From: a bacterium
GTDB taxonomy: Bacteria > Patescibacteriota > UBA1384 > 2-12-FULL-50-11
Assembly (NCBI GenBank): GCA_021463485.1
Contig: JAJTYJ010000001.1
Span: 139,932 to 203,931 of the forward strand
Direction of reading: 5' to 3'
Length of the DNA stretch: 64,000 nt
The translations under genes were made by a program, and so were the position numbers. This document shows positions 9,001-64,000 of this stretch, piece by piece. The notes below the pieces were generated by a model. The model had not been told where the DNA came from. It ran no database searches and saw nothing but the letters and a program-made list of their open reading frames with translations. Numbering within the stretch: position 1 is the stretch's first letter; the number at the start of each line of letters is the position of its first letter.

Positions 9001-9480
9001 ATGTTAAAAACACTCTACGTTATCGCGATCGGTTTATTATTTGCCGCTGTTGTTGGGTTAGGAATCGAAGCGTTCTACCCCCAACCAAAGTACCCTGAAT
9101 ACCCGAGAGAGCTAAATTACCCTGGAACTAACGGGTACACCGAAGAACAAAAAGCAGTACAAGATAAATTCGACGAAGAGAACAAAACCTTCATGAAGCG
9201 TATGGACACCTATAACCGAGATGTCTCACTAATACTTATCGGATTTGCGCTAGTAATTCTTGCTGTCTCGATTATCTGGGTCGGTAGTATTGAAGTGATC
9301 GGCGACGGGTTAACACTTGGTGGGGTCTTCACTCTGTTATACGGTCTGGGGCGAGCGTTGGCTGGCGGCGATGAAAAAGTCCGTTTTCTGGCTGTTGCTT
9401 TTGGATTAGTAGTGCTGGTCTTCCTTGCTTACTGGAAATATATTCGGCCGAACCAACAAAAAACGACTCCGCAGTCCTAA
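9001..9480 (+). CDS. Membrane protein (159 aa), hypothetical
   Basis: Several predicted TM helices; no family recognised. Confidence 0.5.
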   Translation: MLKTLYVIAIGLLFAAVVGLGIEAFYPQPKYPEYPRELNYPGTNGYTEEQKAVQDKFDEENKTFMKRMDTYNRDVSLILIGFALVILAVSIIWVGSIEVIGDGLTLGGVFTLLYGLGRALAGGDEKVRFLAVAFGLVVLVFLAYWKYIRPNQQKTTPQS

Positions 9481-14190: not shown

Positions 14191-14207
14191 GGAGTCGGGA
14201 AGAAACC

Positions 14208-14930: not shown

Positions 14931-17780
14931 TTATTTGATTAATTTAATTAGCTCCCGGAGCGAGATAGTATGATCGTACTGTTGGTCACCTTCATCACGC
15001 ATTAAAGTAATATTAAAGTCTATGGTCTCCGGTTCTCCAACGCCTTCTGCCATTAGTATTGAAAGCGGAGTCTCCGATAGTTTTTGCGAGCGAGGGATAT
15101 TTAATGCCTCTTTAATCTCTGCTGCTTGTTCGCTGTTATCCGCTGCTTCAGAAAAATTAATTGACTGGCCCTCGGCGAAATCGTCTGGGGTTTTACCCGC
15201 CTCTGTAATTAAATCGTACAACTCCTTGTCGGGCTCAGACTCTGACTCCGGTTCTGGCTCGGGAGCTTGGGTTAGCTGCTCTACTTGTTTTTCAGGTTGT
15301 TGAGTATGATTTGGATTTTCTTCTTCGGTTGGGGACCGATCTTGTTCTGTAACTTCCTCCGATTGAGATGATTCTAGATTTCGCCCAACTACCATTGATT
15401 CGATCGTTGAATACACAAATGGTTGAGCAATTTTGCCAACCTTAGTAACGATCGTTTGACGCTTTGAATCGACTCGATCTACGGTGATTTTTACCAAACC
15501 ATTTTCTTTCTCACCGCTTCGCAGAACAGTAGTGCCGATTCGGCTTGAATCACCCTCAGGAACTCTCAAGAAAAGTACGTCACCTTGGGCTATATCTTCA
15601 AACTTTACGCTCGCTTCGTTCTCCTCAACGCTCTTATTTGCTTCTACCCTTACAGTATTAATATTAGGCTGGCCGTTAACAGTGATGGGCACCGGTTCTT
15701 CCTTTTGAAGCTGTTTCTTGGCGTTAGCATCTTCAAACCGGTCAACAATCTCGTTAAGCAGAGCTGTCACTTCTTTGCTTGATGGGTTTGTTATAACTTT
15801 CCAACCATCTTTCTCCCGTGAATCAGTTCTACCAAGAACAATCTTAGGCGGGTTCGGCAACGGCCGCCCTTCGCGATCGTACTCTGGCTCCGGATATTCT
15901 AACTTAATAGATTGGGAGAAATTGTCTTTGTTTTTCAAGAAGATCGACGTGACCGAACGACCGTCTGGTGCTGGAGTCTTGCTCATTGTGATCCCAAATG
16001 TGTTTAACGTATCTTCGTCTAATTCAGAAGCTCCAAACGAATACAGCTTCTCAACATCTTCAACTATCGACGCAGCGTCACTACTTTCTGGTTCAACTTT
16101 CTTATCGCCTTTTTCGTTATAAGCCTCCAGGAAAGCCTTGCTAATATCCTCTTCAACACCTTCAAGGATTTCTTGATGACCAGTAGTGTCTTTTTCGGCC
16201 CACCGAACCGGTAAGTTCTTGCCATTTTCACCAGCTGGTAATTCTTTTTGGTCACGGGCGTTAAGAGCTGCTTGCTCGCCATCCGTTTTATCAACGCCCG
16301 ATTCTTCTGGTTTTTTGCGCATCGGTAACGCTTTAGCTTCGCCGCCCGGTAATGCTAGCCGATTATCATCAGATTTTGATTCAGTTGCCTTGGGTTCTCC
16401 GCCACTCTTTTTAACAGATGAAAAGAACTCAGCCAAGAACTGCAGCTGTGCCCCAGCTATTGGCACAGCTTCTTTCCAGAACGATCCGGCTAACGCAGCA
16501 GCGCGCTCAGCAAGTTCGGGATTATTTTGCACTATCAAGTTGCGGAAGATACTATCGTTGAGACCTGATAATACGTGAACTTCGCTACCATTATTTAACA
16601 CGGCTGTTGTAACTTCGGCAGCCTTATTGACGCCAAACTCAGCCGCCGCAGTTCCACCGTTGTAGTTAAAGACAAAACCTCCTGTTTTTTCGAGTTGTTG
16701 GGCAAACCCTGGATCGGCGCTAGCGATATCACTCGGGTTAATTTTTTCGACAAAATGTTGTATTCCATCTTTATCAAAATCTGCCCATACCCCACGAACT
16801 TTATCAATATCGGCATTAAGCAAGCTCTCCTGAATTGCATATCCTCCCAGCCCACCTAATATTGAACCACCTGCTGCAATAATGTCAGCTACCTTCTCTC
16901 GTTTTTTTTCAAGACGCATCTTGTCATAGCCAAGTCTTTGCGTTTCAGCTAAACCACTGAGTTCCTTCTCCACTTTATTTTCCGCATAAAGTGCCTGGTA
17001 GCTTTCATAATGAGTGAGGTCAATAAAGTATTGATGGAGTTCTGCAAGTTGTTTGTCGATTTCCACCCTTCGTTCTTCGTCGGCCTCCTCGCGCTCCATG
17101 ACTAGATCCACAGCTTGGTCTTGAAGCCTGGCTGCCTCGGCAAATACCTTAGAGCGAGATTCGATAACTTTGGTTCTACCCTCACGTTCATCCTTCTTAA
17201 AATGTCGGTAAAGCTCGAAGGCCCCTCGCGCCGCAGCACCGCCAGCCAACGCCGCTAGAAAGACAGGCGAGCCGACTGTCCCACCGAGTATTGCGGCAAT
17301 ACCTGCACCGATACCACCAGCAACACCGGTTTTTACACCAATTTTGCCGAGACGAAGTGCGCCATCACGACCTAATAATCGAAATGCTTTTTTAAGTTCT
17401 TTGGCTTGCTCTTCAGGCTTTGCATCAGCAACTCGTTCAGAGATTTTTAAGTCAGAGTATTCACCTGCAAATACAGCTTTGGTTTGCTTAATAAATCGGC
17501 TAAGTACATTACCCTCACTAATTTTATAACGCTCCGCGATCTCTTCGATACTTCGCTGTCGGGCCTGCTCAACGTAATTAATAGCGAATTTCTCGCGTTC
17601 CTGTTTATTATCGACAACCGTATCGGCGTTCTCGGGTGAAATCAGTGGAGCAGGCTCTTCCGGGGTTGGTTCGCTTTCTGGTTTTTCGGCTACTTCCTCA
17701 GTGGTATCTTTCCACTCGTCGGGGCTTAATTCATAAACTTCCGGATCTTGGCCAGCATCAGCGCCCCTCAGCTCCGACAT
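14931..17780 (-). CDS. Large acidic hypothetical protein (949 aa) with Gly/Ala-rich hydrophobic segments
   Basis: Long open frame translationally coupled to the upstream 111-aa gene; glycine-zipper-like segments GVAGGIGAGIAAILGG and IIAAGGSILGGLGG; no NTP-binding motif or known domain recognised. Confidence 0.7.
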   Translation of the reverse strand: MSELRGADAGQDPEVYELSPDEWKDTTEEVAEKPESEPTPEEPAPLISPENADTVVDNKQEREKFAINYVEQARQRSIEEIAERYKISEGNVLSRFIKQTKAVFAGEYSDLKISERVADAKPEEQAKELKKAFRLLGRDGALRLGKIGVKTGVAGGIGAGIAAILGGTVGSPVFLAALAGGAAARGAFELYRHFKKDEREGRTKVIESRSKVFAEAARLQDQAVDLVMEREEADEERRVEIDKQLAELHQYFIDLTHYESYQALYAENKVEKELSGLAETQRLGYDKMRLEKKREKVADIIAAGGSILGGLGGYAIQESLLNADIDKVRGVWADFDKDGIQHFVEKINPSDIASADPGFAQQLEKTGGFVFNYNGGTAAAEFGVNKAAEVTTAVLNNGSEVHVLSGLNDSIFRNLIVQNNPELAERAAALAGSFWKEAVPIAGAQLQFLAEFFSSVKKSGGEPKATESKSDDNRLALPGGEAKALPMRKKPEESGVDKTDGEQAALNARDQKELPAGENGKNLPVRWAEKDTTGHQEILEGVEEDISKAFLEAYNEKGDKKVEPESSDAASIVEDVEKLYSFGASELDEDTLNTFGITMSKTPAPDGRSVTSIFLKNKDNFSQSIKLEYPEPEYDREGRPLPNPPKIVLGRTDSREKDGWKVITNPSSKEVTALLNEIVDRFEDANAKKQLQKEEPVPITVNGQPNINTVRVEANKSVEENEASVKFEDIAQGDVLFLRVPEGDSSRIGTTVLRSGEKENGLVKITVDRVDSKRQTIVTKVGKIAQPFVYSTIESMVVGRNLESSQSEEVTEQDRSPTEEENPNHTQQPEKQVEQLTQAPEPEPESESEPDKELYDLITEAGKTPDDFAEGQSINFSEAADNSEQAAEIKEALNIPRSQKLSETPLSILMAEGVGEPETIDFNITLMRDEGDQQYDHTISLRELIKLIK

Positions 17781-17781
17781 T

Positions 17782-18117
17782 TTAGTTACTCTGGTGCTGA
17801 CCGCGCAGCGTCTCAGAGATAGAAGCCATCTCTACCTTATACGCAAGTGATTCTGTCGTGGCAATCTGATCAATATCAATACCGTTTTCTTCAAAGAACG
17901 CCTGAACAGCCTTGGCATCACCAGCATTAATCAGTTCTTTTAATTTATCTAGACCTTGTTCATCGAGCTGGTCGGCGACTCGCAGCATTACTCGATTCAT
18001 CACCGTCTCATACGCTTTCTGAAAAACGTCTGCCTTTTCTTCCTCAGACAGTCCCTCAAGTTCAGAAACCTCAAACAAGCTCTTCTGTAATACGTCTTCT
18101 AGCCCAATATTACTCAT
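17782..18117 (-). CDS. Small acidic hypothetical protein (111 aa)
   Basis: 36 nt downstream of rpoD with no intervening terminator; its stop lies 1 nt from the ATG of the 949-aa gene. Confidence 0.6.
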   Translation of the reverse strand: MSNIGLEDVLQKSLFEVSELEGLSEEEKADVFQKAYETVMNRVMLRVADQLDEQGLDKLKELINAGDAKAVQAFFEENGIDIDQIATTESLAYKVEMASISETLRGQHQSN

Positions 18118-38766: not shown

Positions 38767-39750
38767 TCATGCTGCCAGGATTCTTTGGAGAAGGGCGGCT
38801 TCCGGCCGGAACGAGAACAGGATGCCGTTCTCAACAGATTGCGCCACTTCTTTAAGCGTCAATTTGGTCGGTTCGACGCCGGTGGCAGTCAGCGAGCCGT
38901 TCAAGCACATCCCGGTTTCCACCTGGAAGTGCCACTTCGGCATCCCGGAGATCGCCGCCTCTCCAAATAGGCGAGGATCCAGCGGCTCGATGGCGAGCCC
39001 GGCAAGCTTGGCCTCAGCCAGACGAATCCGGCCAACGACGTGCGGCATCAGAGCTGCCAGATCTTGGCGCGTCGGCAGGACCTGAATATTACCGCTGGAG
39101 CGCTCGATAATCAGGATTGAGATTCCTCGACCGTGTTTAGCTGAGCGCGCCACGCTCAGTAACTGATCGTTATCGCTGCGAATCGTAGCGATCCGCAGCT
39201 TTCTGCCGCTTGGCAGCTTAACGACTTGAGTCCTGGCTCTCGCGAGCTCGGGAACTGCGCTAGTGTGAAACCGGCGCTGTGCCCGGAGATGGGTCACAAT
39301 CTCCTCGATCGCCCACTCCAAAACTTTCTGGTCGCTCTGGCCGTCCTGGTACTTTGTTCGCATTGAGTGCGCCAAATCCATCATCGAGCTCCGACCCTGC
39401 AGGTCGTTTGCCTTAATCCAGTTAAGGACGTAGGCAACTTCCGGCCTATTGGCGACGCCGAGCGCCTTAGCGACCAGGGTCGCGCAGGTCTCGTTTTCGG
39501 TGCGGGCAGCAGTGTCGGTGGCGTGCTCGTTGAATCGTCCCGAACCGACGCCGACCTGTAGAATCCCTTGAGCTTCGAGCTCTTTAGGATCTTTGCCTTG
39601 GTAGTTCTGATACCCAGAGTCGATGAAGACAATCTGAGCATCTCGAGAGAGATTGAGTTGGTCGCCGCCGTACTCGCGCAACAGCGCGATCGCGGCGGCT
39701 TCGTCCGGGTGCGGACGACGATGAGTGACGATGTTATTGAATTTTCTCAA
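38767..39750 (-). CDS. GC-rich gene for a putative metal-dependent hydrolase, MYG1/UPF0160-like (tentative); TTG start with a GGAG SD
   Basis: The N-terminus IVTHRRPHPDEAAAIALL parallels the MYG1 pattern THxGxFHxDEALAxxLL; later VGVGSGRFNEH and a C-terminal G-x-x-x-NGSLTATG pattern; ~60% GC. Confidence 0.5.
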   Translation of the reverse strand: MRKFNNIVTHRRPHPDEAAAIALLREYGGDQLNLSRDAQIVFIDSGYQNYQGKDPKELEAQGILQVGVGSGRFNEHATDTAARTENETCATLVAKALGVANRPEVAYVLNWIKANDLQGRSSMMDLAHSMRTKYQDGQSDQKVLEWAIEEIVTHLRAQRRFHTSAVPELARARTQVVKLPSGRKLRIATIRSDNDQLLSVARSAKHGRGISILIIERSSGNIQVLPTRQDLAALMPHVVGRIRLAEAKLAGLAIEPLDPRLFGEAAISGMPKWHFQVETGMCLNGSLTATGVEPTKLTLKEVAQSVENGILFSFRPEAALLQRILAA

Positions 39751-52017: not shown

Positions 52018-53027
52018 AAATACTAGCCATTGAGACCTCCTGCGACGAAACAGCGGCAGCGATCGTTGAAGATCAAAATTACCGTCCGGTTGTACTAAGC
52101 GAAGTAGTCGCGTCTCAGATGGAGGTTCACGCCGAAACTGGTGGCGTCGTTCCCAATATCGCCGCTCGTCTTCACACTGAAGCTCTGCCGCAAGTACTCG
52201 CTCAGGTCACCAATAAGAAACGGCTGGACTTTGATGCCGTCGCTGTAACTGTTGGCCCGGGGCTAATCGGCTCGCTACTAGTGGGGGTTGCTGCGGCCAA
52301 AAGTATCGCTATGAGCAAAGACCTACCGTTTTTCGCGATTAATCACCTCGAAGGACATATTTACTCGGCTTGGCTTAACGAACAGTTGCCAGAGTTGCCG
52401 GCGATTATTGTGATAGTTTCTGGCGGTCACACCGAACTTGTCTTAATGGAACGACACGGAGTTTATCAGCACCTCGGCTCAACTCGCGACGACGCCGCCG
52501 GCGAGGCCTTCGATAAGGTTGCCAGACTACTCGAGCTAGGGTACCCGGGTGGACCGGAAATCGCGAAACTGGCGCTTCACGGCGCTCGTGACGCTTACCA
52601 ATTCCCAATCGGACTCGACGAGCGCGACAGTCTAGAGTTTTCGTTTAGCGGTCTAAAGGCATCTGTTTATTCGCTCCTTCAAAAGTTACCCACACCGCTA
52701 CCAGAGCATACAAAAGCCGATATTGCAGCCAGTTTTGAGCATACCGTTGCAGCTACGATCGCTCGCAAAACCGTAACAGCAGTCGGCCACTACCCAGGAT
52801 TACGCTCGGTCTGTTTGGTTGGCGGGGTCGCAGCCAATCGCTATTTGCGAACCTATCTCGAACAAACACTCAACCAGCGTCGACCGGACGTTCGCTTCTC
52901 GATCGCACCGCTCAACTACTGCACCGACAACGCAGCGATGATTGGAGCAGCGGCTGTCTATCACCATCTTTTTGGTAAACCTGATTCTTGGTATGCTAGT
53001 CAGGCTAATCCAAGCCTAGAGCTCTGA
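52014..53027 (+). CDS. tsaD: tRNA N6-adenosine threonylcarbamoyltransferase TsaD (Kae1/Gcp family)
   Basis: MKILAIETSCDETAAAIV N-terminus, HxEGH metal site (NHLEGH), C-terminal SGGVAAN; its stop overlaps the valS ATG. Confidence 0.9.
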   Translation: MKILAIETSCDETAAAIVEDQNYRPVVLSEVVASQMEVHAETGGVVPNIAARLHTEALPQVLAQVTNKKRLDFDAVAVTVGPGLIGSLLVGVAAAKSIAMSKDLPFFAINHLEGHIYSAWLNEQLPELPAIIVIVSGGHTELVLMERHGVYQHLGSTRDDAAGEAFDKVARLLELGYPGGPEIAKLALHGARDAYQFPIGLDERDSLEFSFSGLKASVYSLLQKLPTPLPEHTKADIAASFEHTVAATIARKTVTAVGHYPGLRSVCLVGGVAANRYLRTYLEQTLNQRRPDVRFSIAPLNYCTDNAAMIGAAAVYHHLFGKPDSWYASQANPSLEL

Positions 53028-55111
53028 TGAAAGAAATACCAACTCGCTACGACCACACCACCGAGCCTGCAACCTACGACGAGTGGGAGAAGTCTGGATT
53101 GTTCTCGCCGAAAGGCAAGGGTGAACCGTTTAGTATGATCATGCCACCGCCTAACGTTACCGGCGACCTCCACCTCGGTCACGGTTTAACTTATGCAGTT
53201 CACGATACCATTGCCCGCTACCAACGACGTCTCGGTAAAGACGTTCTAATTCTGCCGGGTGCCGACCACGCAGCGATTGCCGTTCAGGCCCTAGTCGAAA
53301 AGAAAGTCCAAAAAGAGCAGGGTATGAGCCGAACACAACTAGGTAAAGAAAAGTTCCTCGAAGAAGTTTGGAAATGGATCGAGTATTACATGCCTCGTAT
53401 GAAAGTATCACTTCGTCGATTTGGCCTATCGGCCGACTGGACTAAATTTCGTTTTACGATGGACGAGCACTCCCAATACGCCGTTCAGACAGCGTTTATC
53501 GAGCTCTATAAAAAGGATTTGATCTATCGGGGCAATTATCTGGTTAACTGGGACCCAAAACTACAAACCGCTATTTCCGACGATGAAGTTGTCTATCAAG
53601 AAGTGCCCGGTAAGCTGTATTGGATAAAATACGGGCCGATTACGTTGGCAACCGTTAGACCCGAGACAAAATTCGGCGACACCGCCATTGCCGTTCACCC
53701 AGAAGATCATCGCTACAAAAAATACGTCGGAACAGAAATTGAAGTAACACTGGTAACCGGCGAGAAGAAGAAAATCCCCGTTGTCGCCGACGAAGCCGTC
53801 GACCCCGAGTTTGGCACCGGCGCGGTTAAAGTTACACCGGCTCATGACCCGGCCGATTTTGAGATTGCTAAGCGCCACAATCTGCCGGCGATCGAAGTGA
53901 TTGACCAGTACGGCAAACTCACGGCCGTTGCCGGTGAGTTTGTTGGCCTTAAAGCCAGCGACGCTCGTGAAATCGTAGCGAAAAAATTAGAAGAGATGGG
54001 CCTTCTCGAAAAAACAGAAGACTACACGATCCGCCAACCGATTAGTGAACGAAGCGGTGCCGTCATCGAGCCACGTCTTTCGACGCAGTGGTTCATGAAA
54101 ACAACAGAACTAAAGAAAGAGGCGCTAGCGGTCGTTCGATCAGGTAAAATTACGTTTTTCCCAAAGAGTATTGAGAAAACGTATGAACACTGGCTAAGCA
54201 ACCTCCACGACTGGTGTATCTCACGTCAGCTCTGGTGGGGACACCCTATCCCAGCATACTACGACGAGAAAGGTAACATTTTCGTAGCTGATTCGCTCGA
54301 GTCAGCCCAAAAAGAAGCTGGCAAAGACGTCAAATTAACTGCCGATCAAGATGTTCTCGATACCTGGTTCTCGTCAGGGCTCTGGCCGTTCTCAACGCTC
54401 GGCTGGCCGAACGCTGAGGCACCAGATCTAAAACGGTACTTTCCTACTAGCCTACTAGAAACCGGCACAGATATTCTTTTCTTTTGGGTGGCCCGGATGA
54501 TTATCTTGAGTCTTGCCTTGCAAAAAGAAGTGCCCTTCAAGCAAGTCTACTTTCACGGTCTTATTTTGGACGAAGACGGTAAAAAAATGAGTAAAAGTAA
54601 GGGTAATGTTCTTGACCCGCTGATACTTATTGATAAATACGGCGCTGATGCGTTCCGGATGAGCGTAATCGGTGGCAATTCGGTCGGACAGCCGCAAAGA
54701 TACTCCGAACAAAAGATCATTAAGTATCGAAATTTTGTTACAAAAGTGTGGAACGCAGCACGGTTTGTGGCTATAACCGCCGACAACACTAAACCAGTAA
54801 AGCCAACTAAACTCGACCGAACTGAAACCGAGTTTTGCCAAAAACTAGAGCGTCTAACTCAAGACAACCAAAAGTTCTTCGCTAACTACCAACTCGGAGT
54901 GGCGTTAGAAGAATTGTACGAGTTTTTCTGGCACGAATTCGCCGATAAACTAATCGAATATGAGAAGAAAGTGATCCAAGAAACTACCGACGTCGAGCGA
55001 GCCAAGGAGGCCAAAGCCTTCTTAAGTTGGGCGCTGCAAGAACAGCTACCGCTCCTTTCCGACTTTGCGCCGTTTCTTGTTGATCGCATCAAGAAGGAGA
55101 TGTTTCAATGA
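53027..55111 (+). CDS. valS: Valine--tRNA ligase (short form, no long C-terminal coiled coil)
   Basis: Class I HIGH region PPPNVTGDLHLGHG (ValRS-type), CP1 editing domain, WCISRQLWWGHPIP, KMSKS (KKMSKSKGNV). Confidence 0.85.
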   Translation: MKEIPTRYDHTTEPATYDEWEKSGLFSPKGKGEPFSMIMPPPNVTGDLHLGHGLTYAVHDTIARYQRRLGKDVLILPGADHAAIAVQALVEKKVQKEQGMSRTQLGKEKFLEEVWKWIEYYMPRMKVSLRRFGLSADWTKFRFTMDEHSQYAVQTAFIELYKKDLIYRGNYLVNWDPKLQTAISDDEVVYQEVPGKLYWIKYGPITLATVRPETKFGDTAIAVHPEDHRYKKYVGTEIEVTLVTGEKKKIPVVADEAVDPEFGTGAVKVTPAHDPADFEIAKRHNLPAIEVIDQYGKLTAVAGEFVGLKASDAREIVAKKLEEMGLLEKTEDYTIRQPISERSGAVIEPRLSTQWFMKTTELKKEALAVVRSGKITFFPKSIEKTYEHWLSNLHDWCISRQLWWGHPIPAYYDEKGNIFVADSLESAQKEAGKDVKLTADQDVLDTWFSSGLWPFSTLGWPNAEAPDLKRYFPTSLLETGTDILFFWVARMIILSLALQKEVPFKQVYFHGLILDEDGKKMSKSKGNVLDPLILIDKYGADAFRMSVIGGNSVGQPQRYSEQKIIKYRNFVTKVWNAARFVAITADNTKPVKPTKLDRTETEFCQKLERLTQDNQKFFANYQLGVALEELYEFFWHEFADKLIEYEKKVIQETTDVERAKEAKAFLSWALQEQLPLLSDFAPFLVDRIKKEMFQ

Positions 55112-55461
55112 CGCCGAGAGCGTTGTTTTGGATCGGCGCGCTCATCGCCTTTAGCGCAATTGTTAGTTTGTACTCAGCCGAGCGCGCAAAAATTTCCAGA
55201 GAATTACTCCAACAACAAGAACAGTTCCAGCAAGCTCAGGTAGAAAGTATGAAAAATTTTCTACAAGAACAAAAGGACGGCAAAAAACTTATTGGACTTG
55301 CTAAGCGCTTACCGAGCGAAAACGCCGAGTTGATAAAATTGGTGGTGCTACGCGCTTACGAGCTAGAGCCAAATAGTCGAGATATCGCCGTGCTTGCCAG
55401 CGCTTACGACCCCGGCGCTAAGGCTCGGGTTAAAGAGATCGACCCGCTTTACTCCGAATAA
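55108..55461 (+). CDS. Small N-terminally anchored hypothetical protein (117 aa)
   Basis: Its ATG overlaps the valS stop; one TM; no family recognised. Confidence 0.5.
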   Translation: MTPRALFWIGALIAFSAIVSLYSAERAKISRELLQQQEQFQQAQVESMKNFLQEQKDGKKLIGLAKRLPSENAELIKLVVLRAYELEPNSRDIAVLASAYDPGAKARVKEIDPLYSE

Positions 55462-55465
55462 AAAA

Positions 55466-55485
55466 TTGGGCCAAGGTTGGCCCAA
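55466..55485. terminator. Palindrome TTGGGCCAA/TTGGCCCAA between convergent genes; an A/T run on the minus-strand side
   Basis: Read directly; most plausibly terminates the minus-strand gene 55490..56113. Confidence 0.35.
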
Positions 55486-55489
55486 CGAG

Positions 55490-56113
55490 TTATTCCCCCT
55501 TTTGCCAGAGCAGGGGTTTTGCTCTTGTCGTATCGTCCCAGACGTGGAAACGTGCGAGCGCCTCTTTGAAGTCTGCTGCGAACATCGGTTTGCCAGCTGA
55601 GACGGTAAGAGAAATTGGTTGTGCGCTTTTCCAGCCGGTCTGATCACCCCAACAGAGTAGAGTCGCAGTACATCGAGGCGATGTGACGCTCACCGACCAG
55701 TAGGCGCCGGGCCTAACCGTCTCTGTGAGGTACTCAACGGATCGCTGGCTTTCCTGACCGAAAAGACGCAATAGCTCCTCGGGTACCGGGACGCTTTTTG
55801 TGAGCTCTATGAAACCAATATTGAGCTCGGGCTTGGTTCCAGTCCCGCTTTCGACCAGGCTAACCACGAGGTTCTCTCCCTGTGATTTATTAACAGCCAG
55901 ATCCACTGTCTTGAAGCGGTAACGACCAAGCAACGAGTGCAACTCAGAGTTGCGACGAGCTGACGGGGCGTCGGTCTCAACCGGCTTTCCACCAGCTAAC
56001 ACAGCTTCGTTTTTCCCCTGTAGGAAGTCAGCTACTCGCTGCTCTACTAGGGTTGTTGTGGCTTCGCCGAGCGACAAGCCAGACATGACAATTGCGAGTA
56101 ATGCGCTATACAT
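55490..56113 (-). CDS. Secreted hypothetical protein (207 aa)
   Basis: N-terminal signal peptide MYSALLAIVMSGLSLGEA; no homology recognised. Confidence 0.55.
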   Translation of the reverse strand: MYSALLAIVMSGLSLGEATTTLVEQRVADFLQGKNEAVLAGGKPVETDAPSARRNSELHSLLGRYRFKTVDLAVNKSQGENLVVSLVESGTGTKPELNIGFIELTKSVPVPEELLRLFGQESQRSVEYLTETVRPGAYWSVSVTSPRCTATLLCWGDQTGWKSAQPISLTVSAGKPMFAADFKEALARFHVWDDTTRAKPLLWQKGE

Positions 56114-56202
56114 AAAGCACCTCTGTTAATGAACTGGCCACAGTATATCACGAAATCCGGCTAGTTAATTAAAAAATCCTCCGAGAATGCTATGCTAAAG
56201 AT

Positions 56203-57687
56203 ATGCGCGCGAGGGGAAACTTGGCCTGGTTACTAGCTCTGTTTATGTTGCTCCAATTATTTCCTGTGCCTGTCCTAGGACAGGCGGGAGAAGTTCGAGA
56301 AGGGGCTTTCGGCCAGGCTTGTACCGCAGATTATTACCGCGAGGGGATCAACGTTACAAAAAGCACGTTTAGGGTGGAAGAGGCAGAAAGCGGATCAGTA
56401 CCGAACAAGATCTACCTCTTTATGACCACCAACCGCGGCAGAACTTGCCGTGATATTCTTAGACCAAAGAACGACAACATCCCTCGTAGCGAGTTTGAAA
56501 ACCCGAGTAGCCTAGGCAGTGGGACTCGGTTTACGTCATTTCAGAGTGGAATAATGCCCAAATACTTTGTGTTGCATGGTCGCCGCGCAACTGGACAAAG
56601 GATCGAAAAGAATTTTGAAGTTTCCATCATAGTTGATACCGACCCTAACTCTTCTACGTACGCGTACACAAGGGGTGTTTACCTGAGAAATGAAAGTAAT
56701 GATGTTTTACCTTGGTTGGGCTTGGGCGGCTTTCATGAGGTAATTAACGGCCCGTATATGGATTGGCCCACTTTTAAGAGTAGGTATAACGAGAACAATA
56801 TGGCTAACGATATCTCGCGCGAGCATTTCCGAACTTTCAAACCGATACTTGACGGCTTGCACTCGATGACGGGAAGGCTTGTTAAAGGGCTCACCCTCGG
56901 GGAAGAGACCACTAATAACGTTAAGCTGGAGGGTAACCTAGATATTGACTTTACTGGTTCGGAGTTAGAGGCAGCCAACGTCCGGGATGACGTTGGCCCA
57001 TTTAAGGGATTACGGGATCGGCTGCCAAACCTCGGCGATGGTGAGTTAAAAATCGCGCTTTGGTTCCGTAATCCAGATTACTTCCTTGGCTACTCATTAA
57101 AGGAAACAATAAGTATTCCTCTTCGAGCCGGCGAGAAGTCGACTGGAAAGTTTTCTCTTAATAAAAAACTTTTAACCGGCGAGTATTTCGCAACGGGCGC
57201 TGTAGACATAAAGACCGATGCAACCGTCCAAGCAGCTGGGGAGACTCTATTAGTCGAACCGATTGGTAAACCAATAGACCTATCGCAATACGAACGCCAA
57301 CTTTCAGAAGTCGAAGCTAGTCTGACCAACGATAACGTCTCTCAATACTACGTCGGGATAACAGGAGAAGGTCGTACAGCAGTGTTCTTTGGTTTAGATA
57401 AGTTCACCGTCGAGAAGGAGACAACTCAGATTACCACTAACCCAGTTATGAAATTACTAAGCGAAACCCCTTCGGACGGCTCCTTGACTGTTGGGAATGA
57501 CGAGTGCGGTATCTTCAGTATTATCGCCGCGGGTGACATCGGGGAAATTTTCTCAAAAATGATCGACTGTATGTTCAAGAGAGTCTTTAGACCTATGATC
57601 GACTGGGCAGCTGATCTTGTTCAGAAAGCGGCTGGTGTTTCTTGGGGTCCAGAGCCTGCAATCCATCGAAAGCAATTATTAGTATGA
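56203..57687 (+). CDS. Secreted hypothetical protein (494 aa), first gene of the T4SS-like cluster
   Basis: Signal peptide MRARGNLAWLLALFMLLQLFPVPVLGQ; its stop overlaps the next ATG (ATGA). Confidence 0.6.
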   Translation: MRARGNLAWLLALFMLLQLFPVPVLGQAGEVREGAFGQACTADYYREGINVTKSTFRVEEAESGSVPNKIYLFMTTNRGRTCRDILRPKNDNIPRSEFENPSSLGSGTRFTSFQSGIMPKYFVLHGRRATGQRIEKNFEVSIIVDTDPNSSTYAYTRGVYLRNESNDVLPWLGLGGFHEVINGPYMDWPTFKSRYNENNMANDISREHFRTFKPILDGLHSMTGRLVKGLTLGEETTNNVKLEGNLDIDFTGSELEAANVRDDVGPFKGLRDRLPNLGDGELKIALWFRNPDYFLGYSLKETISIPLRAGEKSTGKFSLNKKLLTGEYFATGAVDIKTDATVQAAGETLLVEPIGKPIDLSQYERQLSEVEASLTNDNVSQYYVGITGEGRTAVFFGLDKFTVEKETTQITTNPVMKLLSETPSDGSLTVGNDECGIFSIIAAGDIGEIFSKMIDCMFKRVFRPMIDWAADLVQKAAGVSWGPEPAIHRKQLLV

Positions 57688-59846
57688 AGCGAAGTGTGAC
57701 TAAGCCATACATTTTTTACCTGGTATTTTTCATTTTGCTAATCTTGCCTATCACCGTGTTCGCCCAAGATTCTGGTGGTAGCACTACTGGGCCAGCAGGG
57801 TTTGGGAGCCCGCTCGGTGCGTTAATCTCAGAAGAAACCGGCTTCGTTTACCAGGCCTGGCGAGTAACTAGAAGCGTCATCAATATATTGCTTATTATCG
57901 CCCTATTCGCGATTTCTTTTTCCAACATTACTCGTATCAATATCGATACTTACACTATTAAAAAAGCGTTACCAAACTTAATTATTGGGATAATTCTGGC
58001 TAACGCCAGTCTATATATCATCAGGTTTATGTCCGATATCACCACCGTAGTTACCTACTTTTTTGTTAACCAAGTTGGATCAACGACATTTGCCGATTTC
58101 ATTGGTGACACAGCCGAGTTAATAGGAAGAAACACCCTCGAGACAATTGGTTGGGGAGTCGGATTGCTCGCACCGCTGTTAATATTCTTGTTCGCTCTTG
58201 TTACGATTATTGGTTTATTATGGCTAGCGTTTCTGCTCTACTTCCGGCTAGTAGCAATCTACCTGCTCACAATTCTCTCTCCGCTAGCATTCGTCTCTTA
58301 CGGTATTCCTGGTTTCGACAAGTACTTTAAACAGTGGTGGCAGCAGTTTACTAAGTGGTTATTTATCCTTCCGGCAATGTCGGCCGTTTTCTGGCTAATG
58401 CTGGTTATTGGGGAGGCTGGGGAGAACGAAAGTATCGCGCGTCTCCTTATCATGTATGTTCTGTTTTTCACCGCTTTAACGTTGCCAAGCAAGATGGGTG
58501 GCGCTGTCATCGATAAAGCTTCAAAGGCGTTTATGAAATATACGGGTGCCGGCGCAGCAAAACAGGGGGCGATAGAGACGGCTGGGCGTACTGGGCAACA
58601 GCTAGCGCTCCGAGCACCGCTATACGGTCGACTTAAAAAGTCGATGGAATTTGCAAAAAAAGCGCAGGAACAAGATATAAAAAATTTACAAACATCTGCT
58701 GAAAGTAAGGCAATGCGGGGGCGCAATTACCGGAAATTCGCCCGTACAACCAAACGCGGCGAGGAGTTATCTAACTACTTGGCAGCCGAACAAGCTAAGG
58801 CGAACACAAAGGCTGGGGAGGGCAAGCTTGCCAACTTCTTAGACCGACTGCAGCGCCGAGGCGGTTCTCTACCAGAGCGCCAAATATCCTCTGCCTACAA
58901 CAAAGGTTTGGAAGAGGCTCGAGAAAAGATAGAGATGAATCGAAAAAGAGTTGCCTTTACCAAAAACGATGACAACAAGAAACTCATGGAGCAATTCGCG
59001 GCAGCAAGTTCTAAAGACAAAGCATTTGCTGACGCAGTACAGAGCGCTGAGCGTGAAGTTACTGGCATCTACACAACGGGGCGCAAGGACGTTATTAGTA
59101 AGCTTCGAGAGGCTGGCGATATCGCTGGAGAAATCGACAAGATCGAGAAGAAACCAGAGTCCGAACGAACCGATGAAGAAAAGGGCGATTTAACTTTCTG
59201 GAAATCTTACCACTCCGAGTTATTAGCAGACCTAGAGAAGCTTAAGGTCGGTCACGACGACTTGGCCGGCATGAGCGCCGAAGATATGGTACAGAAATAT
59301 CAAACCGATAAAACCTTCTCGACTCTGGTGAAGGCTGAGGAGAAACGGCAGGCCAAGGCCTTTAATGAAGGGATTAAAGCTCAGAACGAGGACACGCTCG
59401 CCGATGGGAGCGTTAAAAGTATCCTTAAGGATATCAACGAAGGCCTTAAGGATCTTAACGAGACTGAACGCGCTAATCTTAAAAAGAAGTTCTTTAACAG
59501 CGACACAATTGGAATGGATGCAAAGTTCCAAAACACGTTAATTAAAAACATCCAAGCGCTAAAAGATATCGGCAAAAATCAGCGCGACACCCGAAGCCCA
59601 GAAGCACTGCGGGAACTCGCTAGCATGATTATGAAAGATGGCGAGAAACCAATCGTTGTTAAGAGCAGAACAACTGGCGAAGAACACACGTTTGATAATT
59701 TTGATGAATTCCAGTCGAAACTATTTAGTGGTGATAAGGATAAGAAGCTAACCACACAAGATATGAAAAACGCCGTACTATCCCACGACTCAGTTTCTGG
59801 CACCCCGGCTTCACATCTAGGAAAGGTCCCAAAGAAAGATGACTGA
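57684..59846 (+). CDS. Polytopic membrane protein with a long charged C-terminal tail; VirB6/TrbL-like T4SS channel component (tentative)
   Basis: Signal/TM then ~6 TM helices over ~300 aa, then a ~400-aa K/E-rich hydrophilic tail; position upstream of VirB3-like and VirB4 genes. Confidence 0.55.
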   Translation: MKRSVTKPYIFYLVFFILLILPITVFAQDSGGSTTGPAGFGSPLGALISEETGFVYQAWRVTRSVINILLIIALFAISFSNITRINIDTYTIKKALPNLIIGIILANASLYIIRFMSDITTVVTYFFVNQVGSTTFADFIGDTAELIGRNTLETIGWGVGLLAPLLIFLFALVTIIGLLWLAFLLYFRLVAIYLLTILSPLAFVSYGIPGFDKYFKQWWQQFTKWLFILPAMSAVFWLMLVIGEAGENESIARLLIMYVLFFTALTLPSKMGGAVIDKASKAFMKYTGAGAAKQGAIETAGRTGQQLALRAPLYGRLKKSMEFAKKAQEQDIKNLQTSAESKAMRGRNYRKFARTTKRGEELSNYLAAEQAKANTKAGEGKLANFLDRLQRRGGSLPERQISSAYNKGLEEAREKIEMNRKRVAFTKNDDNKKLMEQFAAASSKDKAFADAVQSAEREVTGIYTTGRKDVISKLREAGDIAGEIDKIEKKPESERTDEEKGDLTFWKSYHSELLADLEKLKVGHDDLAGMSAEDMVQKYQTDKTFSTLVKAEEKRQAKAFNEGIKAQNEDTLADGSVKSILKDINEGLKDLNETERANLKKKFFNSDTIGMDAKFQNTLIKNIQALKDIGKNQRDTRSPEALRELASMIMKDGEKPIVVKSRTTGEEHTFDNFDEFQSKLFSGDKDKKLTTQDMKNAVLSHDSVSGTPASHLGKVPKKDD

Positions 59847-60612
59847 TCGAATTTGGAACGAAACCGAGGATCAGGTTATCCTACAAATCCAACAACTGCT
59901 TTACTACGGCGACGGAGATATTTTTACTCAGGTCCAAACGCTATTGGGTTCGGTTGGCGACGAAGTCAGACAAGAGCTGTTTGAGTCCGCGTTGTCACAA
60001 GTTAGATATGAGCAGGCAGAGCGTAGGAGGTTTATTTGCGAACAATATCTATTTAACAGCGAACAACTTAATCGAACACAACAGGAAGGATTTATTAGAA
60101 GTTTATACGGAACCGGGATTGATCAGCCGATACCAACAACAGAATCGAATATTGTAGCGCCAGGCGGCCAATTAAAACAAAGCACAATAACAAAAAATGT
60201 GTTTGAGCAGCTAGCGTTATATCAAAGGGTGGAAGATAACATCGCGAACTACTACCAGCGCAAAAATAGCCTCGAGCTTGTTGCTCCCTACTATAACTCT
60301 CTAAAGCAGGCAACAAAGGAGCAGCGCCTCGCTCTTTACGGTGGAATCGAACAATTCTTTTCTGGGTTAGCAGCCTACGGCAACAACCCGCCATTTAACC
60401 ATATCACCATACCAAATAGTTTAGTGGCGATGCTAGAATCCTTAGGTTTAGCAGGCTCCCTCGAACGATTTGAGATGTTCGGTGAACAGTTAAACTTTTT
60501 AGTTCGGCTAAAACGCATTATTGAAGCGCTTGATGCGGTAGAGAATAAACAAGTCTCCGAGGAAACCGCAATCACCGCAACTGGTCTCTACTTACAACAG
60601 TACGGTAGCTAA
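59839..60612 (+). CDS. Soluble hypothetical protein (257 aa) within the T4SS-like cluster
   Basis: Overlaps the previous gene by 8 nt; no family recognised. Confidence 0.55.
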   Translation: MTDRIWNETEDQVILQIQQLLYYGDGDIFTQVQTLLGSVGDEVRQELFESALSQVRYEQAERRRFICEQYLFNSEQLNRTQQEGFIRSLYGTGIDQPIPTTESNIVAPGGQLKQSTITKNVFEQLALYQRVEDNIANYYQRKNSLELVAPYYNSLKQATKEQRLALYGGIEQFFSGLAAYGNNPPFNHITIPNSLVAMLESLGLAGSLERFEMFGEQLNFLVRLKRIIEALDAVENKQVSEETAITATGLYLQQYGS

Positions 60613-60658
60613 CTGGCGCCTAGTATACTGATACGGTAGATTGTAACTATGGGGGGAA

Positions 60659-61075
60659 ATGCAATTTAAAGTTCCTCAGAATATAGATATGCAGGACCGA
60701 ATTATTGGTCCGCTAACCTTGAGCCAATTTTTCTACTTACTCTTTGGCGGACTAATTATCTATATTTTATTTAGCAAATTAGTTCTAAGCGGCTTCTCTT
60801 TTCTCTTTTGGATTTTAGCCATCCCGATCGGGGTATTTAGCTTCTGTATGGCGTTTATAAAGATACAAGACCGGCCGTTCCCTGTTTTCTTTATGGCGAT
60901 GGTTCGCTACATGTCTCAGCCTCGAGCTCGAGTTTGGCAACACTACACCCCGGCGCAACAATCTCGACCAGTAAAACAAACTAAAAAAGTTGAGCAACAA
61001 CCAAAGAAAGCGCTTGATCCGATTCGGGTTAACGAACTAGCTAGTGTTTTGGACGATCCGGAGACTAAACAATAA
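60659..61075 (+). CDS. PrgI / VirB3-like small membrane protein
   Basis: ~138 aa with two TM helices, directly upstream of and nearly abutting the VirB4 ATPase, as in Gram-positive T4SS loci; strong SD GGGGGGAA. Confidence 0.55.
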   Translation: MQFKVPQNIDMQDRIIGPLTLSQFFYLLFGGLIIYILFSKLVLSGFSFLFWILAIPIGVFSFCMAFIKIQDRPFPVFFMAMVRYMSQPRARVWQHYTPAQQSRPVKQTKKVEQQPKKALDPIRVNELASVLDDPETKQ

Positions 61076-61077
61076 CG

Positions 61078-63699
61078 ATGGCGAAAAAACCACAAATCGC
61101 TCCAACACAGAAGTATCTACAGATCGAACGAATTCGAGACGGTATTATCATCCTTAAAGACGGGCGCCTGCGAAAAGTAATTAAAGCCGTACCTGTTAAC
61201 TTCGATTTGAAAAGCGAGAACGAGAAAGAAGTGGCGGTTTATCAGTATCAAAGTTTTTTAAATTCGCTCAAGTTTCCTGTGGAAATTGTCGTGCAGTCAC
61301 GACGAGTCGACTTAGCGGCGTATATCGATAAAGTTGAACGCGCTAGTGCCGGCGAGATTAATGAGTTACTCCAAAGACAAGCTAAGGACTATTTAGATTT
61401 CGTCAAAACTCTAAGTGAGCAGATTAACATTATGGAGAAATCGATCTATATCGTTATTAGTCACACCGCTAAAGGCGCTGTCGAGAACGAAACGCTTATC
61501 GACAAAGTACTCAAACGAAAGAAGGTCGGCGTTACTGCGATCAGTGACGACGAATTTAAGGGTTATAAAGAAATACTCGAGGAGCGATCGCGCACAATTA
61601 GCGGTCGTCTGAACTCACTCGGCGTCACTACTAAAGAACTAGATACTAAAGAGATTATTGAACTCTTTTATAACACCTATAATCCAGAAGAATCGTATAC
61701 CCAGCACCTAAAAGACCCTGAGCAGTTTACGGCCCCAATCTTGGAGCACGGCCAAAAACTGCTCGAGGAAGCGACGAATAAAAACGCACCGCAATCCGAC
61801 GTTAAGTTACAACAAGCGCAAGCGGCACCAAACCCAGAAAAAACGGCAAACGCTCCGACTAAGGAGGAGATCGAGCTAGCTAACCCGTCGGCGATGAAAA
61901 AGACCACCGTCAGCGAGATATTCGGCAAGTTGGGCGTCAAGCATAGCGACCCAACGAGTACCGATGAGGTGTTACGTCAGGGTGTAGCTAGCGTGTTAGA
62001 CATTATCGCACCAGGCGGTATGAATATCACGCCGAACTATATCCAGCTCGGCAGCTTCTTTGTTCGAACGCTTTTTGTCTACACGTACCCACGATACTTA
62101 CAGGCAAACTGGCTTTCACCGATTATTAACTACGACGCAACGCTCGACATTAGTATGTTTATTTATCCGATCGAGACGAACGTGTTACTCGGACAGCTTC
62201 GTCGAAAAACTACGCAGCTCCAGTCGAGCTTACAGATAGAAGCTGAGAAAGGACTTGTGAGAAATCCTGAGCTTGAGACTGCCGTCGGCGATATCGAAGA
62301 GCTTCGCGACACATTACAAAAAGGTGAGACTCGGCTTTTCCAGATGAGTCTTTACTTCACTTTGTACTCCACCTCGATCGACGAACTAAATAAAATGTCT
62401 AAGCAATTCGAGGCGATCCTAGGTGGGCAACTAATTTACACCAAACAAGCGCTCCTACAGATGGAGCAGGGCTTTAATTCGACGTTACCGCTCGGCGACG
62501 ACCAATTGGATGTTGTTCGAAATCTCGACACCGCTTCACTCTCAACAACGTTTCCGTTTACCTCAGCTGAGCTGTCTCACCACGACGGCGTACTGTACGG
62601 CATTAATCTCCATAACAGCTCGTTGGTACTATTTGACCGCTTCAAAATGGAGAACGCTAATCAGGTTGTCTTCGCCAAATCCGGTGCCGGTAAATCGTAC
62701 GCCGTGAAGCTTGAAGCGATTAGATCGCTGATGCTTGGCTCTGAAGTAATCGTGATCGACCCAGAAAATGAGTACAAATCTTTAGCAGAAGCTGTCGGCG
62801 GCACCTACATTAACCTCTCGCTCAACTCGCAGCAAAAAATTAACCCATTCGATCTGCCAAAGTATCGAGAAGGAAGCGACGAGACCGGCGAGCAGCTCCT
62901 GCGTGCCACAGTAACGTCAGTTCATGGACTGGTTGCGCTAATGGCAGGAAGCCTATCCCCAGAGGAAGACAACCTACTGGATAAAGCGCTCTACGAAACG
63001 TACGCCCTTCGCGACATCACCACCGACGCCGCCACCCACTCAAATACTCCCCCCACACTGAGCGACCTTACGACAGTCCTACAAAATATGACGGGTACCG
63101 AGTCGCTCGTGAACCGGCTCGCTAAATACACCGACGGGAGCTTTGCCAGTCTCTTCAACGCCCAAACTAATATCGATATGAACAATAAAGTCACCGTCTT
63201 CTCGATTCGGGATATGGAAGAGGAGCTGCGGCCGATCGCGATGTATATGGCGTTAAATTACATCTGGAGCCGCGTTAAAAGCGATCTCAAGAAACGGATG
63301 ATGATTCTAGACGAGGGCTGGATTATGATGCGCTACGAAGATTCGGCGAAGTTTGTTAATGCGATCGCTAAACGCGCGCGTAAATACTACCTTGGTTTAA
63401 CTGTTATTAGCCAAGACGTTGAGGATTTTTTGAGCTCCAACTACGGCCGGTCGGTCGTTAACAACTCTTCGACGCAACTACTACTCGGGCAATCTACCTC
63501 CGCCATCGATAAAATTGCAGAGACCTTCAAGCTTACTGATGGCGAAAAGTTCTTTTTGACCGAAGCTGAGGTTGGGCAGGGGTTGTTCTTCGCTGGCAAT
63601 AATCGCGCTGCCATTCAAATCGTATCGTCGTACACCGAAGACCAGATTATCACCACCGATCCAAAGCAATTATTAGAGCTCTACGGAATAAGTGAGTAA
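61078..63699 (+). CDS. virB4: Type IV secretion system ATPase VirB4 (TrsE/PrgJ/CagE family)
   Basis: 873 aa; Walker A VVFAKSGAGKSYAVK, Walker B RMMILDEGW, conserved VirB4 N-terminal region. Confidence 0.9.
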   Translation: MAKKPQIAPTQKYLQIERIRDGIIILKDGRLRKVIKAVPVNFDLKSENEKEVAVYQYQSFLNSLKFPVEIVVQSRRVDLAAYIDKVERASAGEINELLQRQAKDYLDFVKTLSEQINIMEKSIYIVISHTAKGAVENETLIDKVLKRKKVGVTAISDDEFKGYKEILEERSRTISGRLNSLGVTTKELDTKEIIELFYNTYNPEESYTQHLKDPEQFTAPILEHGQKLLEEATNKNAPQSDVKLQQAQAAPNPEKTANAPTKEEIELANPSAMKKTTVSEIFGKLGVKHSDPTSTDEVLRQGVASVLDIIAPGGMNITPNYIQLGSFFVRTLFVYTYPRYLQANWLSPIINYDATLDISMFIYPIETNVLLGQLRRKTTQLQSSLQIEAEKGLVRNPELETAVGDIEELRDTLQKGETRLFQMSLYFTLYSTSIDELNKMSKQFEAILGGQLIYTKQALLQMEQGFNSTLPLGDDQLDVVRNLDTASLSTTFPFTSAELSHHDGVLYGINLHNSSLVLFDRFKMENANQVVFAKSGAGKSYAVKLEAIRSLMLGSEVIVIDPENEYKSLAEAVGGTYINLSLNSQQKINPFDLPKYREGSDETGEQLLRATVTSVHGLVALMAGSLSPEEDNLLDKALYETYALRDITTDAATHSNTPPTLSDLTTVLQNMTGTESLVNRLAKYTDGSFASLFNAQTNIDMNNKVTVFSIRDMEEELRPIAMYMALNYIWSRVKSDLKKRMMILDEGWIMMRYEDSAKFVNAIAKRARKYYLGLTVISQDVEDFLSSNYGRSVVNNSSTQLLLGQSTSAIDKIAETFKLTDGEKFFLTEAEVGQGLFFAGNNRAAIQIVSSYTEDQIITTDPKQLLELYGISE

Positions 63700-63701
63700 A
63701 A

Positions 63702-64000
63702 ATGGCCGGAGGGGATCCAAAAACACTACCACCACTAACACCAGAAGAGGAGTTCGACGATACCCCAGAGGAGCTCGTCGGACAGCTTAATGAACAAGAA
63801 GAGTCCGAGCCTGATCTTCAACAAGTCTGGGACGAGATTAGACAGCGCCGCAGCACTGAGTCGCCTACTAAAACGGACCCGATAGAAGCGACTAAGCGTC
63901 AGGAGTTGCATCAGAAGGAACTAGAGCGTTCTCAGCAAATAGCCGACAAAGTGAAAACCGGCAAGCAAGTTGCCCAGAAAACTGTTACTAAGGGCTCGGA
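63702..64000 (+). CDS. Acidic hypothetical protein, 3'-truncated by the window edge
   Basis: ATG 2 nt after the virB4 stop; open to the window end. Confidence 0.4.
   Translation, partial: MAGGDPKTLPPLTPEEEFDDTPEELVGQLNEQEESEPDLQQVWDEIRQRRSTESPTKTDPIEATKRQELHQKELERSQQIADKVKTGKQVAQKTVTKGS

Follow-up and report, generated by a model that had tools for sequence, protein, structure and literature searches.

The 64,000-nucleotide (nt) stretch of DNA analysed here (hereafter the window) comes from a bacterium of the Patescibacteriota (lineage UBA1384; 2-12-FULL-50-11) and covers positions 139,932 to 203,931 of contig JAJTYJ010000001.1 (assembly GCA_021463485.1); its last part carries a gene cluster encoding a type IV secretion system (T4SS). 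Together with 9 kb downstream, the sequence examined amounts to 73 kb of a contig of approximately 685 kb. Listing of open reading frames (ORFs) recovered six ORFs on the plus strand and one of 207 amino acids (aa) on the minus strand, and the region is the left two-thirds of an approximately 15-kb, ten-gene chromosomal operon, bounded by valS and g117 on one side and by the origin-region genes recF-dnaN on the other. On the plus strand, the operon begins with a gene for a 494-aa secreted protein (56203..57687), whose hydrophobic N-terminus resembles a signal peptide and whose ectodomain varies while its C-terminal module is conserved, followed by a VirB6/TrbL-like candidate channel protein of 720 aa counted from its ATG (57684..59846), a predicted cytoplasmic all-alpha protein of 257 aa (59839..60612), a PrgI/VirB3-like protein of 138 aa (60659..61075), an 873-aa VirB4 ATPase (61078..63699), and a 437-aa NlpC/P60 hydrolase (63702..64000) that is cut by the window end after 99 codons and is complete in two related contigs (L001 and L006).

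An earlier annotation of the same letters (the sequence-only reading) had described these genes as tightly overlapped, with ATGA junctions at 57684, 59839 and 63702. The tight packing is as described, and the 57684 junction between the 494-aa gene and virB6 is a true ATGA overlap, but the 59839 junction between virB6 and the 257-aa gene is an 8-nt overlap (ATGACTGA), and at 63702 virB4 and the next gene do not overlap, being separated by a 2-nt spacer (TAA AA ATG); the PrgI-VirB4 junction is likewise a 2-nt spacer. The last ORF had been taken for a truncated acidic protein: it does run off the window, and the acidic part is the N-terminus of the complete hydrolase.

For the 873-aa protein, the best curated family was NCBIfam conju_CD1110, the VirB4 of clostridial conjugative transposons, with a score of 386.5 bits over residues 294-842 against a curated cut-off of 325. 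Further matches were found to Pfam P-loop_TraG (1.7e-26) and AAA_10, to the solved C-terminal domain of VirB4 (PDB 4AG5, 1.3e-39) and to TrwK. Walker A (AKSGAGKS, aa 533-540, nt 62674-62697) and Walker B (MMILDE, aa 741-746, nt 63298-63315) are both present without damage, and judged from these motifs the enzyme is catalytically intact. Near its N-terminus, residues 22-202 (nt 61141-61683) gave a weak match to NCBIfam TrsD/TraD (9e-5); since this match lies inside the 873-aa chain, the TrsD-like domain is part of VirB4 in this locus. All VirB4 relatives at 44-100% identity are from Patescibacteria, except for one record (L017) titled Gammaproteobacteria, and those with 73-80% identity are mostly labelled Berkelbacteria or Saccharibacteria, while the nearest clearly non-patescibacterial match, in a metagenome-assembled genome of Ruminococcus, is 27% identical. 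By its family membership, VirB4 is of the monoderm type (MPF-FATA, CD1110-like). The 138-aa protein, which ends 2 nt before virB4, passed the Pfam PrgI cut-off (41 bits versus 27; 2.8e-10) and has two membrane helices. Both proteins had been named by the sequence-only reading as a VirB4 ATPase and a PrgI/VirB3-like protein with two transmembrane segments, and both assignments hold.

The third protein it had named, a polytopic VirB6/TrbL-like protein with a charged tail of about 400 aa, also agrees with what we observed. In the 720-aa protein, a signal peptide precedes a hydrophobic core of 5-6 helices (conserved at nt 57786-58540), and this is followed by a 436-aa tail that is 35% charged and probably cytoplasmic. 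A profile of the VirB6 core built from eight orthologs had exactly one match among 177,635 PDB sequences, namely TrwI, the VirB6 of R388 (E 0.003). The precomputed annotation of the protein is PF19590 TrbL_3, and an ortholog from a relative (L027) matched TrbL at 1.8e-4, below the cut-off.

Comparing genes within the same loci, VirB4 was 71-80% identical across six relatives, as against 57-65% for ValRS, 62-71% for TsaD, 43-55% for DnaN and 41-44% for RecF (coordinates used: virB4, window 61078-63699; valS, window 53027-55111; and L001 21399-22481). VirB4 is the best-conserved gene of the locus, a detail that seems new, and its greater conservation than that of ValRS, TsaD, DnaN and RecF indicates strong purifying selection, which fits an essential machine.

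By comparison, the 494-aa protein is conserved only at its end. Neither it nor the 257-aa protein belongs to a family in Pfam, NCBIfam or PHROGs, in agreement with the earlier remark that the two have no recognisable family, and a word-indexed homologue search returned four relatives of the former and two of the latter. Positional orthologs of the 494-aa protein share a C-terminal module of approximately 50 residues (window 57505..57645, plus strand) with two conserved cysteines and the pattern P-x-I-x-W-A-A-x-L...A-A-G (in the alignments, C..I..C..P.I.WAA.L...AAG). The module is common to all ectodomain alleles, and in an otherwise unrelated allele (P0004) about 46 consecutive residues of it differ by one conservative substitution (S/A); a search with the 60-aa C-terminal module alone found nothing at database-wide E-values. 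In two relatives, L009 and L027, a single reading frame joins ectodomain and module to the VirB6 N-terminus, so that the proteins are 1319 and 1305 aa long, the latter version occurring in two data sets. The window's 494-aa gene is instead translationally coupled to virB6 through the ATGA overlap, and VirB6 keeps its own signal peptide. Because of this overlap, the in-frame fusions in relatives and the conservation of the module across alleles, we read the 494-aa protein as a part of VirB6: it seems to be the detached extracellular N-terminal domain of that protein, which also seems to be a new detail.

The basis for a cassette pattern is a comparison of three strains belonging to one species, with a single weaker example from a second lineage, and each allele was seen in independent assemblies. 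One strain, L023, recovered from three independent samples, resembles the window at 93-99.8% in protein and 94-97% in DNA over tsaD, valS, g117, g207, the VirB6 core, PrgI, VirB4 and the NlpC/P60 gene, yet has two segments without nucleotide similarity to it. The first, at 56085-57500, spans the promoter region between the genes, together with the 5′ end of the 207-aa gene and the 494-aa ectodomain (hypervariable cassette 1), and L023 has in its place a 497-aa protein that is unrelated except for the C-terminal module. The second, at 58541-60643, covers the VirB6 tail and the 257-aa gene (hypervariable cassette 2); here, L023 has a different tail, giving a VirB6 of 1036 aa, and a counterpart of the 257-aa product that is only 26% identical. 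Directly downstream of cassette 2, PrgI and VirB4 of L023 are again 97% identical in nucleotides and 99-100% in amino acids. The third strain is Patescibacteria group bacterium BroJett034 (L006), whose 685-kb contig (BOKZ01000001.1) carries the VirB4 locus at approximately 94% identity in DNA, apart from a segment without similarity at 56102-57785 that encodes a third ectodomain of 398 aa; its tail and 257-aa alleles are those of the window. Three unrelated ectodomains therefore occupy the 494-aa slot within one species. A distant lineage (L026), whose neighbouring genes are 44-46% identical, has a window-type 494-aa protein with 46% identity over the full length, and hence the protein is not simply fast-evolving, but unrelated alleles are exchanged at a fixed slot. 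Taken together, the alignments show that the ectodomain, and the VirB6 tail with the 257-aa gene, have been replaced by unrelated or barely related alleles between strains that are otherwise 94-97% identical, a pattern that seems new.

Searches of metagenomes from the Joint Genome Institute (JGI) gave no matches by an exact-match scan with a conserved 35-mer of the VirB6 core and 33 loci by a protein-based scan, with almost no close strain pairs among them, so that we do not generalise the cassette replacement. One JGI pair from a different Patescibacteria lineage (L044/L051) has a VirB6-like gene that is 76% identical in DNA, with the last ~120 codons unalignable and downstream genes at 87%, which hints that C-terminal variability of VirB6 may not be confined to the window's species. 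At the other end of VirB6, we noted that the proteins of BroJett034 (L006 5896-8769) and L023 (11487-14597) have an extra N-terminal extracellular region with two tandem repeats of ~100 aa, 34% identical to each other and 29% between the strains, and that the window's VirB6 has none.

The 257-aa protein belongs to a small, lineage-restricted family with 41 representative clusters among 1.84 billion proteins, all of about 260 aa, and its gene sits between those for VirB6 and PrgI in the relatives examined, including L027. Its AlphaFold2 (AF2) model is all-alpha, with a predicted local distance difference test (pLDDT) score of 92.3 and a predicted template modelling score (pTM) of 0.86, and a fold search of this model against the PDB found no solved structure alike beyond generic helical hairpins. 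An identity as TrsD or as the N-terminal domain of VirB4 was considered and rejected, as TrsD matches VirB4 residues 22-202 instead and hhalign against the VirB4 N-domain gave a probability of 0.4%.

No relaxase, VirD4/TcpA coupling protein or integrase was found in the 73 kb, and the only FtsK-like ATPase there is a full FtsK, its 4TM, alpha and gamma domains all being present. None of the cluster proteins matched VirB9 or VirB10, and there are no outer-membrane core proteins. The earlier statement that no VirD4, relaxase, pilin or integrase is in view thus extends to the 9 kb beyond the window, where its proposed check for a conjugative element finds hydrolases followed by recF and dnaN instead.

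The VirB4 sequence is encoded on contigs of three sequencing runs (L001 among them) that match the window exactly over 12.9 kb, and from these the operon continues past the window with the 437-aa NlpC/P60 hydrolase, a 1429-aa protein, a 421-aa M23 peptidase and a 200-aa exported protein, beyond which lie, in convergent orientation, a DciA-like gene, recF and dnaN. The hydrolase, most of which lies beyond the window end, scored 28.3 bits against the NLPC_P60 cut-off of 23 and has one membrane helix after its acidic N-terminus, its presumed role being VirB1-like, and the peptidase scored 62.8 bits against the Peptidase_M23 cut-off of 28.7 and is predicted to be membrane-anchored by an N-terminal helix. 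The conserved 1429-aa surface protein (L001 13938-18227, equivalent to window positions 65015-69304) has a signal peptide and two C-terminal helices. It also has an SxHxxGxAxD motif that is invariant in 7/7 orthologs and is found in a Saccharibacteria locus (L016) as well; the motif is the zinc-ligand signature of LAS/VanY-type peptidases, and just upstream of it is a weak EF-hand-like loop. We did not accept the protein as a peptidase of this type, with no profile match in Pfam or PDB and an expected downstream histidine that is not conserved. Between the T4SS operon and recF-dnaN, a 99-aa protein (L001 20075-20374, minus strand) weakly resembles DciA (Pfam E 0.004, below cut-off), and its position beside recF-dnaN fits a replication-origin neighbourhood.

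The composition of the locus is native: guanine plus cytosine content (GC) of the cluster genes, overall and at third codon positions (GC3), is within 1.6 standard deviations (SD) of the window's genes (n=58), so the compositional check that had been proposed returns a native signature, and there are no flanking repeats or tRNA genes. Gene order is kept in L004, L005, L007, L008, L009 and L027; no family-level relative examined departs from it, and the synteny extends across genera. The remainder of the window is ordinary chromosome, with polA, a murE-like gene, femAB, pnp, rnj, ftsK, recA, recX, ppdK, dnaG, rpoD, aspS and valS.

At the left edge of the neighbourhood, a bidirectional terminator-like hairpin (55465..55486; 9-bp stem with 5 GC pairs and a T-run) separates g117, in the valS operon, from the 207-aa gene (55490..56113, minus strand), whose product has a short signal-peptide-like N-terminus. 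The sequence-only reading had placed a convergent gene for a secreted protein here; the ORF is present, but it is divergent from the T4SS operon and convergent with valS/g117 instead. Its product is 93-95% identical in strains of the same species and has no family match in Pfam, NCBIfam or PHROGs. We found no support for it as a T4SS component, the slot being filled by heterogeneous, unrelated genes in relatives. The 117-aa protein (55108-55461), with one N-terminal membrane helix and a gene that overlaps the valS stop, is kept between valS and the T4SS in every relative examined, at 33-46% identity.

Elsewhere in the window, a 159-aa ORF (9001-9480) has the sole pilin-like layout, in which an N-terminus resembling a signal peptide is combined with two membrane helices at the C-terminus; it matched neither T4SS_pilin nor TrbC, and 47 kb separate it from the T4SS. 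Two adjacent small GC-rich genes at 13594-14855 (GC 0.59-0.61, z +2.5 to +2.9) have no family match, one with a signal peptide and a C-terminal membrane helix and the other with an N-terminal helix and a proline-rich region, and may be a small foreign or fast-evolving insert. Two more GC-rich ORFs without a Pfam family on record are at 38767-39750 (minus strand, GC 0.58) and 2797-3111 (minus strand, GC 0.56), each with z about +2. Upstream of rpoD-dnaG, a 949-aa protein (14931-17780, minus strand) without a family match is acidic at its N-terminus and contains two membrane helices rich in glycine and alanine, and its gene adjoins one for a DUF5663 protein (17782-18117, minus strand).

Focusing on what is known of such systems, a survey of 3,035 Patescibacteria genomes reported VirB4 in 2,417 of them, with almost all of the proteins belonging to a single clade nested in MPF-FATA, with relaxases almost always absent and virB4 often near dnaA/dnaN (Quinonero-Coronel et al. 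2025, PMC12102498). A gene or array for a VirB2-like pilin is near virB4 in many Patescibacteria classes, though not all (PMC12102498). In Southlakia epibionticum ML1, the locus SEML1_0004-0019 is essential for epibiotic growth by transposon sequencing (Wang et al. 2023, PMC10633639); it adjoins recF, and its genes run from an exported protein through a hydrolase, a 1113-aa protein, VirB4, a 293-aa protein and PrgI to a VirB6-like protein and further genes (PMC10633639). The window locus is plainly the already described Patescibacteria-clade T4SS, the same system as in S. epibionticum, in another lineage. Both are chromosomal and directly beside recF-dnaN, both have no relaxase or coupling protein in the locus, and both share an order of long-tailed VirB6-like protein, PrgI, VirB4, wall hydrolase, a protein of more than 1000 aa, a second hydrolase and a small exported protein. 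They differ in that VirB4 is here a single 873-aa chain with a TrsD-like N-domain, in contrast to a 612-aa VirB4 and a separate 293-aa protein in S. epibionticum; in the number of VirB6 genes (one here, two there), the length of PrgI (138 aa versus 300 aa) and the type of hydrolase (NlpC/P60 and M23 versus lysozyme-like); in the VirB2-like pilin array, none being found here in the 73 kb; and in the 257-aa helical protein and split VirB6 ectodomain that this lineage adds.

With the conjugative T4SSs of monoderms (MPF-FATA: the conjugative transposon CD1110 type, pCF10 PrgH-I-J-K and Tn916 Orf16-15-14), the locus shares a VirB4 above the CD1110 cut-off, PrgI, a VirB6-like channel, a membrane-anchored NlpC/P60 or M23 hydrolase after VirB4, and the lack of an outer-membrane core, and the earlier view of a minimal T4SS of Gram-positive type was correct in this respect. 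Unlike those systems, it has, within the 73 kb, no relaxase, coupling protein, origin of transfer (oriT) or integrase and no recognisable VirB8-like protein, and it is located off mobile elements, vertically inherited at the origin region. The stalk of the R388 T4SS (PDB 7O3V and related) is reportedly made of VirB5 and VirB6, according to Mace et al. in 2022. To this stalk the window locus can be compared by analogy only, as an extracytoplasmic protein on a VirB6 channel whose core profile matches TrwI; no sequence or structural similarity of the 494-aa protein to VirB5 was seen, the link being gene fusion and translational coupling only. Large hydrophilic extensions on a VirB6 core are also found in F-plasmid TraG, for which an exclusion or specificity role has been proposed, and in the VirB6 paralogues of Rickettsiales. 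Here, by contrast, near-identical strains differ by cassette exchange of these extensions, and the one at the N-terminus can be encoded by a gene of its own. The role of such VirB6 extensions has been described as unknown (PMC12857230).

Overall, we are fairly confident that the locus is a Patescibacteria-type T4SS derived from monoderm MPF-FATA conjugation machinery, which is non-conjugative and serves the epibiotic lifestyle at contact with the host. The epibiotic, non-conjugative role follows from the essentiality of the syntenic S. epibionticum locus, by analogy with which ultrasmall Patescibacteria would probably use the T4SS on the host cell; this agrees with the earlier suggestion of host- or partner-interaction machinery in a small-genome organism, the bacterium being a patescibacterium with a locus syntenic to one essential for epibiotic growth. 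Reviews have proposed effector delivery or nucleic-acid import (PMC12857230, PMC11665869), and the machine would act at host-cell contact rather than in conjugation, with protein export and import of host material both possible cargo routes. Hexamers of VirB4 docked on PrgI and VirB6 would power assembly and transport, and the NlpC/P60 and M23 hydrolases would open peptidoglycan, whether in the wall of the bacterium itself or in that of the host. On the VirB6 channel, the 494-aa protein may be seated through its conserved C-terminal module, with the exchangeable distal domain facing the target surface; if the ectodomain is what touches the host, its replacement from strain to strain would be accounted for. 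On the cytoplasmic side, the tail of VirB6 and the helical 257-aa protein would be a second exchangeable module and, having been replaced together, may form a matched pair.

We put forward more tentatively, as a reading that we consider possible but would not bet on, that these are specificity modules: the 494-aa protein would be a cap (a VirB5 counterpart or adhesin) that reads the host surface and whose swaps set host range, and the VirB6 tail with the 257-aa protein would be a substrate-recruiting platform that replaces the coupling protein and is matched to strain-specific cargo.

Several observations weigh against this account as a whole. The VirB6-like assignment, which we accept weakly, is weak by sequence, and a direct Pfam scan of the window's 720-aa protein gave no match; the cytoplasmic location of the tail is placed by hydropathy and a positive-inside argument only. 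Structure prediction had been suggested for both family-less proteins, and in contrast to the confident model of the 257-aa protein, that of the 494-aa protein, made from a four-sequence alignment, had a pLDDT of 48 and was unusable. No cluster protein in the 73 kb has a sequence match to VirB8, a protein rarely found in Patescibacteria (PMC12102498). Likewise, no small membrane ORF across the window matched Pfam T4SS_pilin or TrbC, and no ORF in or beside the cluster in the 73 kb was pilin-like, while in Saccharibacteria a pilin array within the T4SS locus is essential. The absence of a conjugation relaxase and coupling protein holds for 73 kb of the ~685-kb contig, and unlinked ones may exist. 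Linkage alone could account for the joint replacement of the tail and the 257-aa gene, and a 2024 review called the role of the Patescibacteria T4SS 'completely unknown' (PMC11665869).

Among the alternatives, we consider unlikely an import machine for DNA or nucleotides that, like Helicobacter ComB or archaeal Ced, would feed an organism unable to make nucleotides. This idea has been raised in review, with ComEC competence being dispensable and the T4SS essential in S. epibionticum (PMC11665869, PMC12857230), and the lack of a relaxase or type IV coupling protein (T4CP) nearby is consistent with it. There are also very weak NCBIfam matches to CedB and CedD, but at 23-30 bits against cut-offs of 600-700, these point only to shared P-loop ancestry; no DNA-binding or nuclease component was seen in the locus, and the sequence gives no indication of the direction of transport. 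An organelle mainly for attachment and wall breaching, which holds the epibiont and cuts host peptidoglycan without translocating specific macromolecules, would suit a locus dominated by very large surface proteins and two to three wall hydrolases, in which the surface module changes from strain to strain in the manner of adhesins. We regard this as quite unlikely, given that the presence of PrgI and VirB6 beside a highly conserved, catalytically intact VirB4 implies a membrane channel that is energised, and that host adhesion in cultivated Saccharibacteria has so far been ascribed to type IV pili (PMC12857230).

Two further readings keep a link to conjugation. A working conjugation or mobilisation system, for which other parts of the genome would supply the relaxase, coupling protein and oriT, could draw on the fact that VirD4-like proteins are common in Patescibacteria genomes and usually far from virB4 (PMC12102498), and that only 73 kb of the genome has been seen; of the 3,035 Patescibacteria genomes surveyed, however, no more than 103 had relaxases, in S. 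epibionticum the T4SS is essential but the T4CP homologue is not (both PMC12102498), and the present locus is vertically inherited, of native composition and set between housekeeping genes next to the origin, so we judge such a system very improbable. We give almost no credence to the idea that an integrated conjugative element or plasmid is decaying here and has left this locus as a remnant, an option that the sequence-only reading had kept. Its conjugative ancestry is visible in the CD1110 VirB4 as the best curated family, but all ORFs are intact with translational coupling preserved, VirB4 keeps its catalytic motifs and is more conserved than ValRS, TsaD, DnaN and RecF, and the synteny reaches across genera, with hydrolases and then recF/dnaN downstream and no integrase, flanking repeats, tRNA or compositional anomaly.

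Thus, the analysis adds no new system to a T4SS that is nearly universal in a radiation holding a large share of bacterial diversity and is essential in the one species tested; what seems new is the conservation of VirB4, the split VirB6 ectodomain and the cassette replacement. A VirB4 more conserved than an aminoacyl-tRNA synthetase and replication genes supports a place for this machine in the core physiology of these bacteria rather than as an accessory. The swapping of the ectodomain, and of the tail with its partner, is what one would expect of components in contact with something that itself varies, be it the host surface or the cargo, and these exchangeable modules offer a handle on the system's role.

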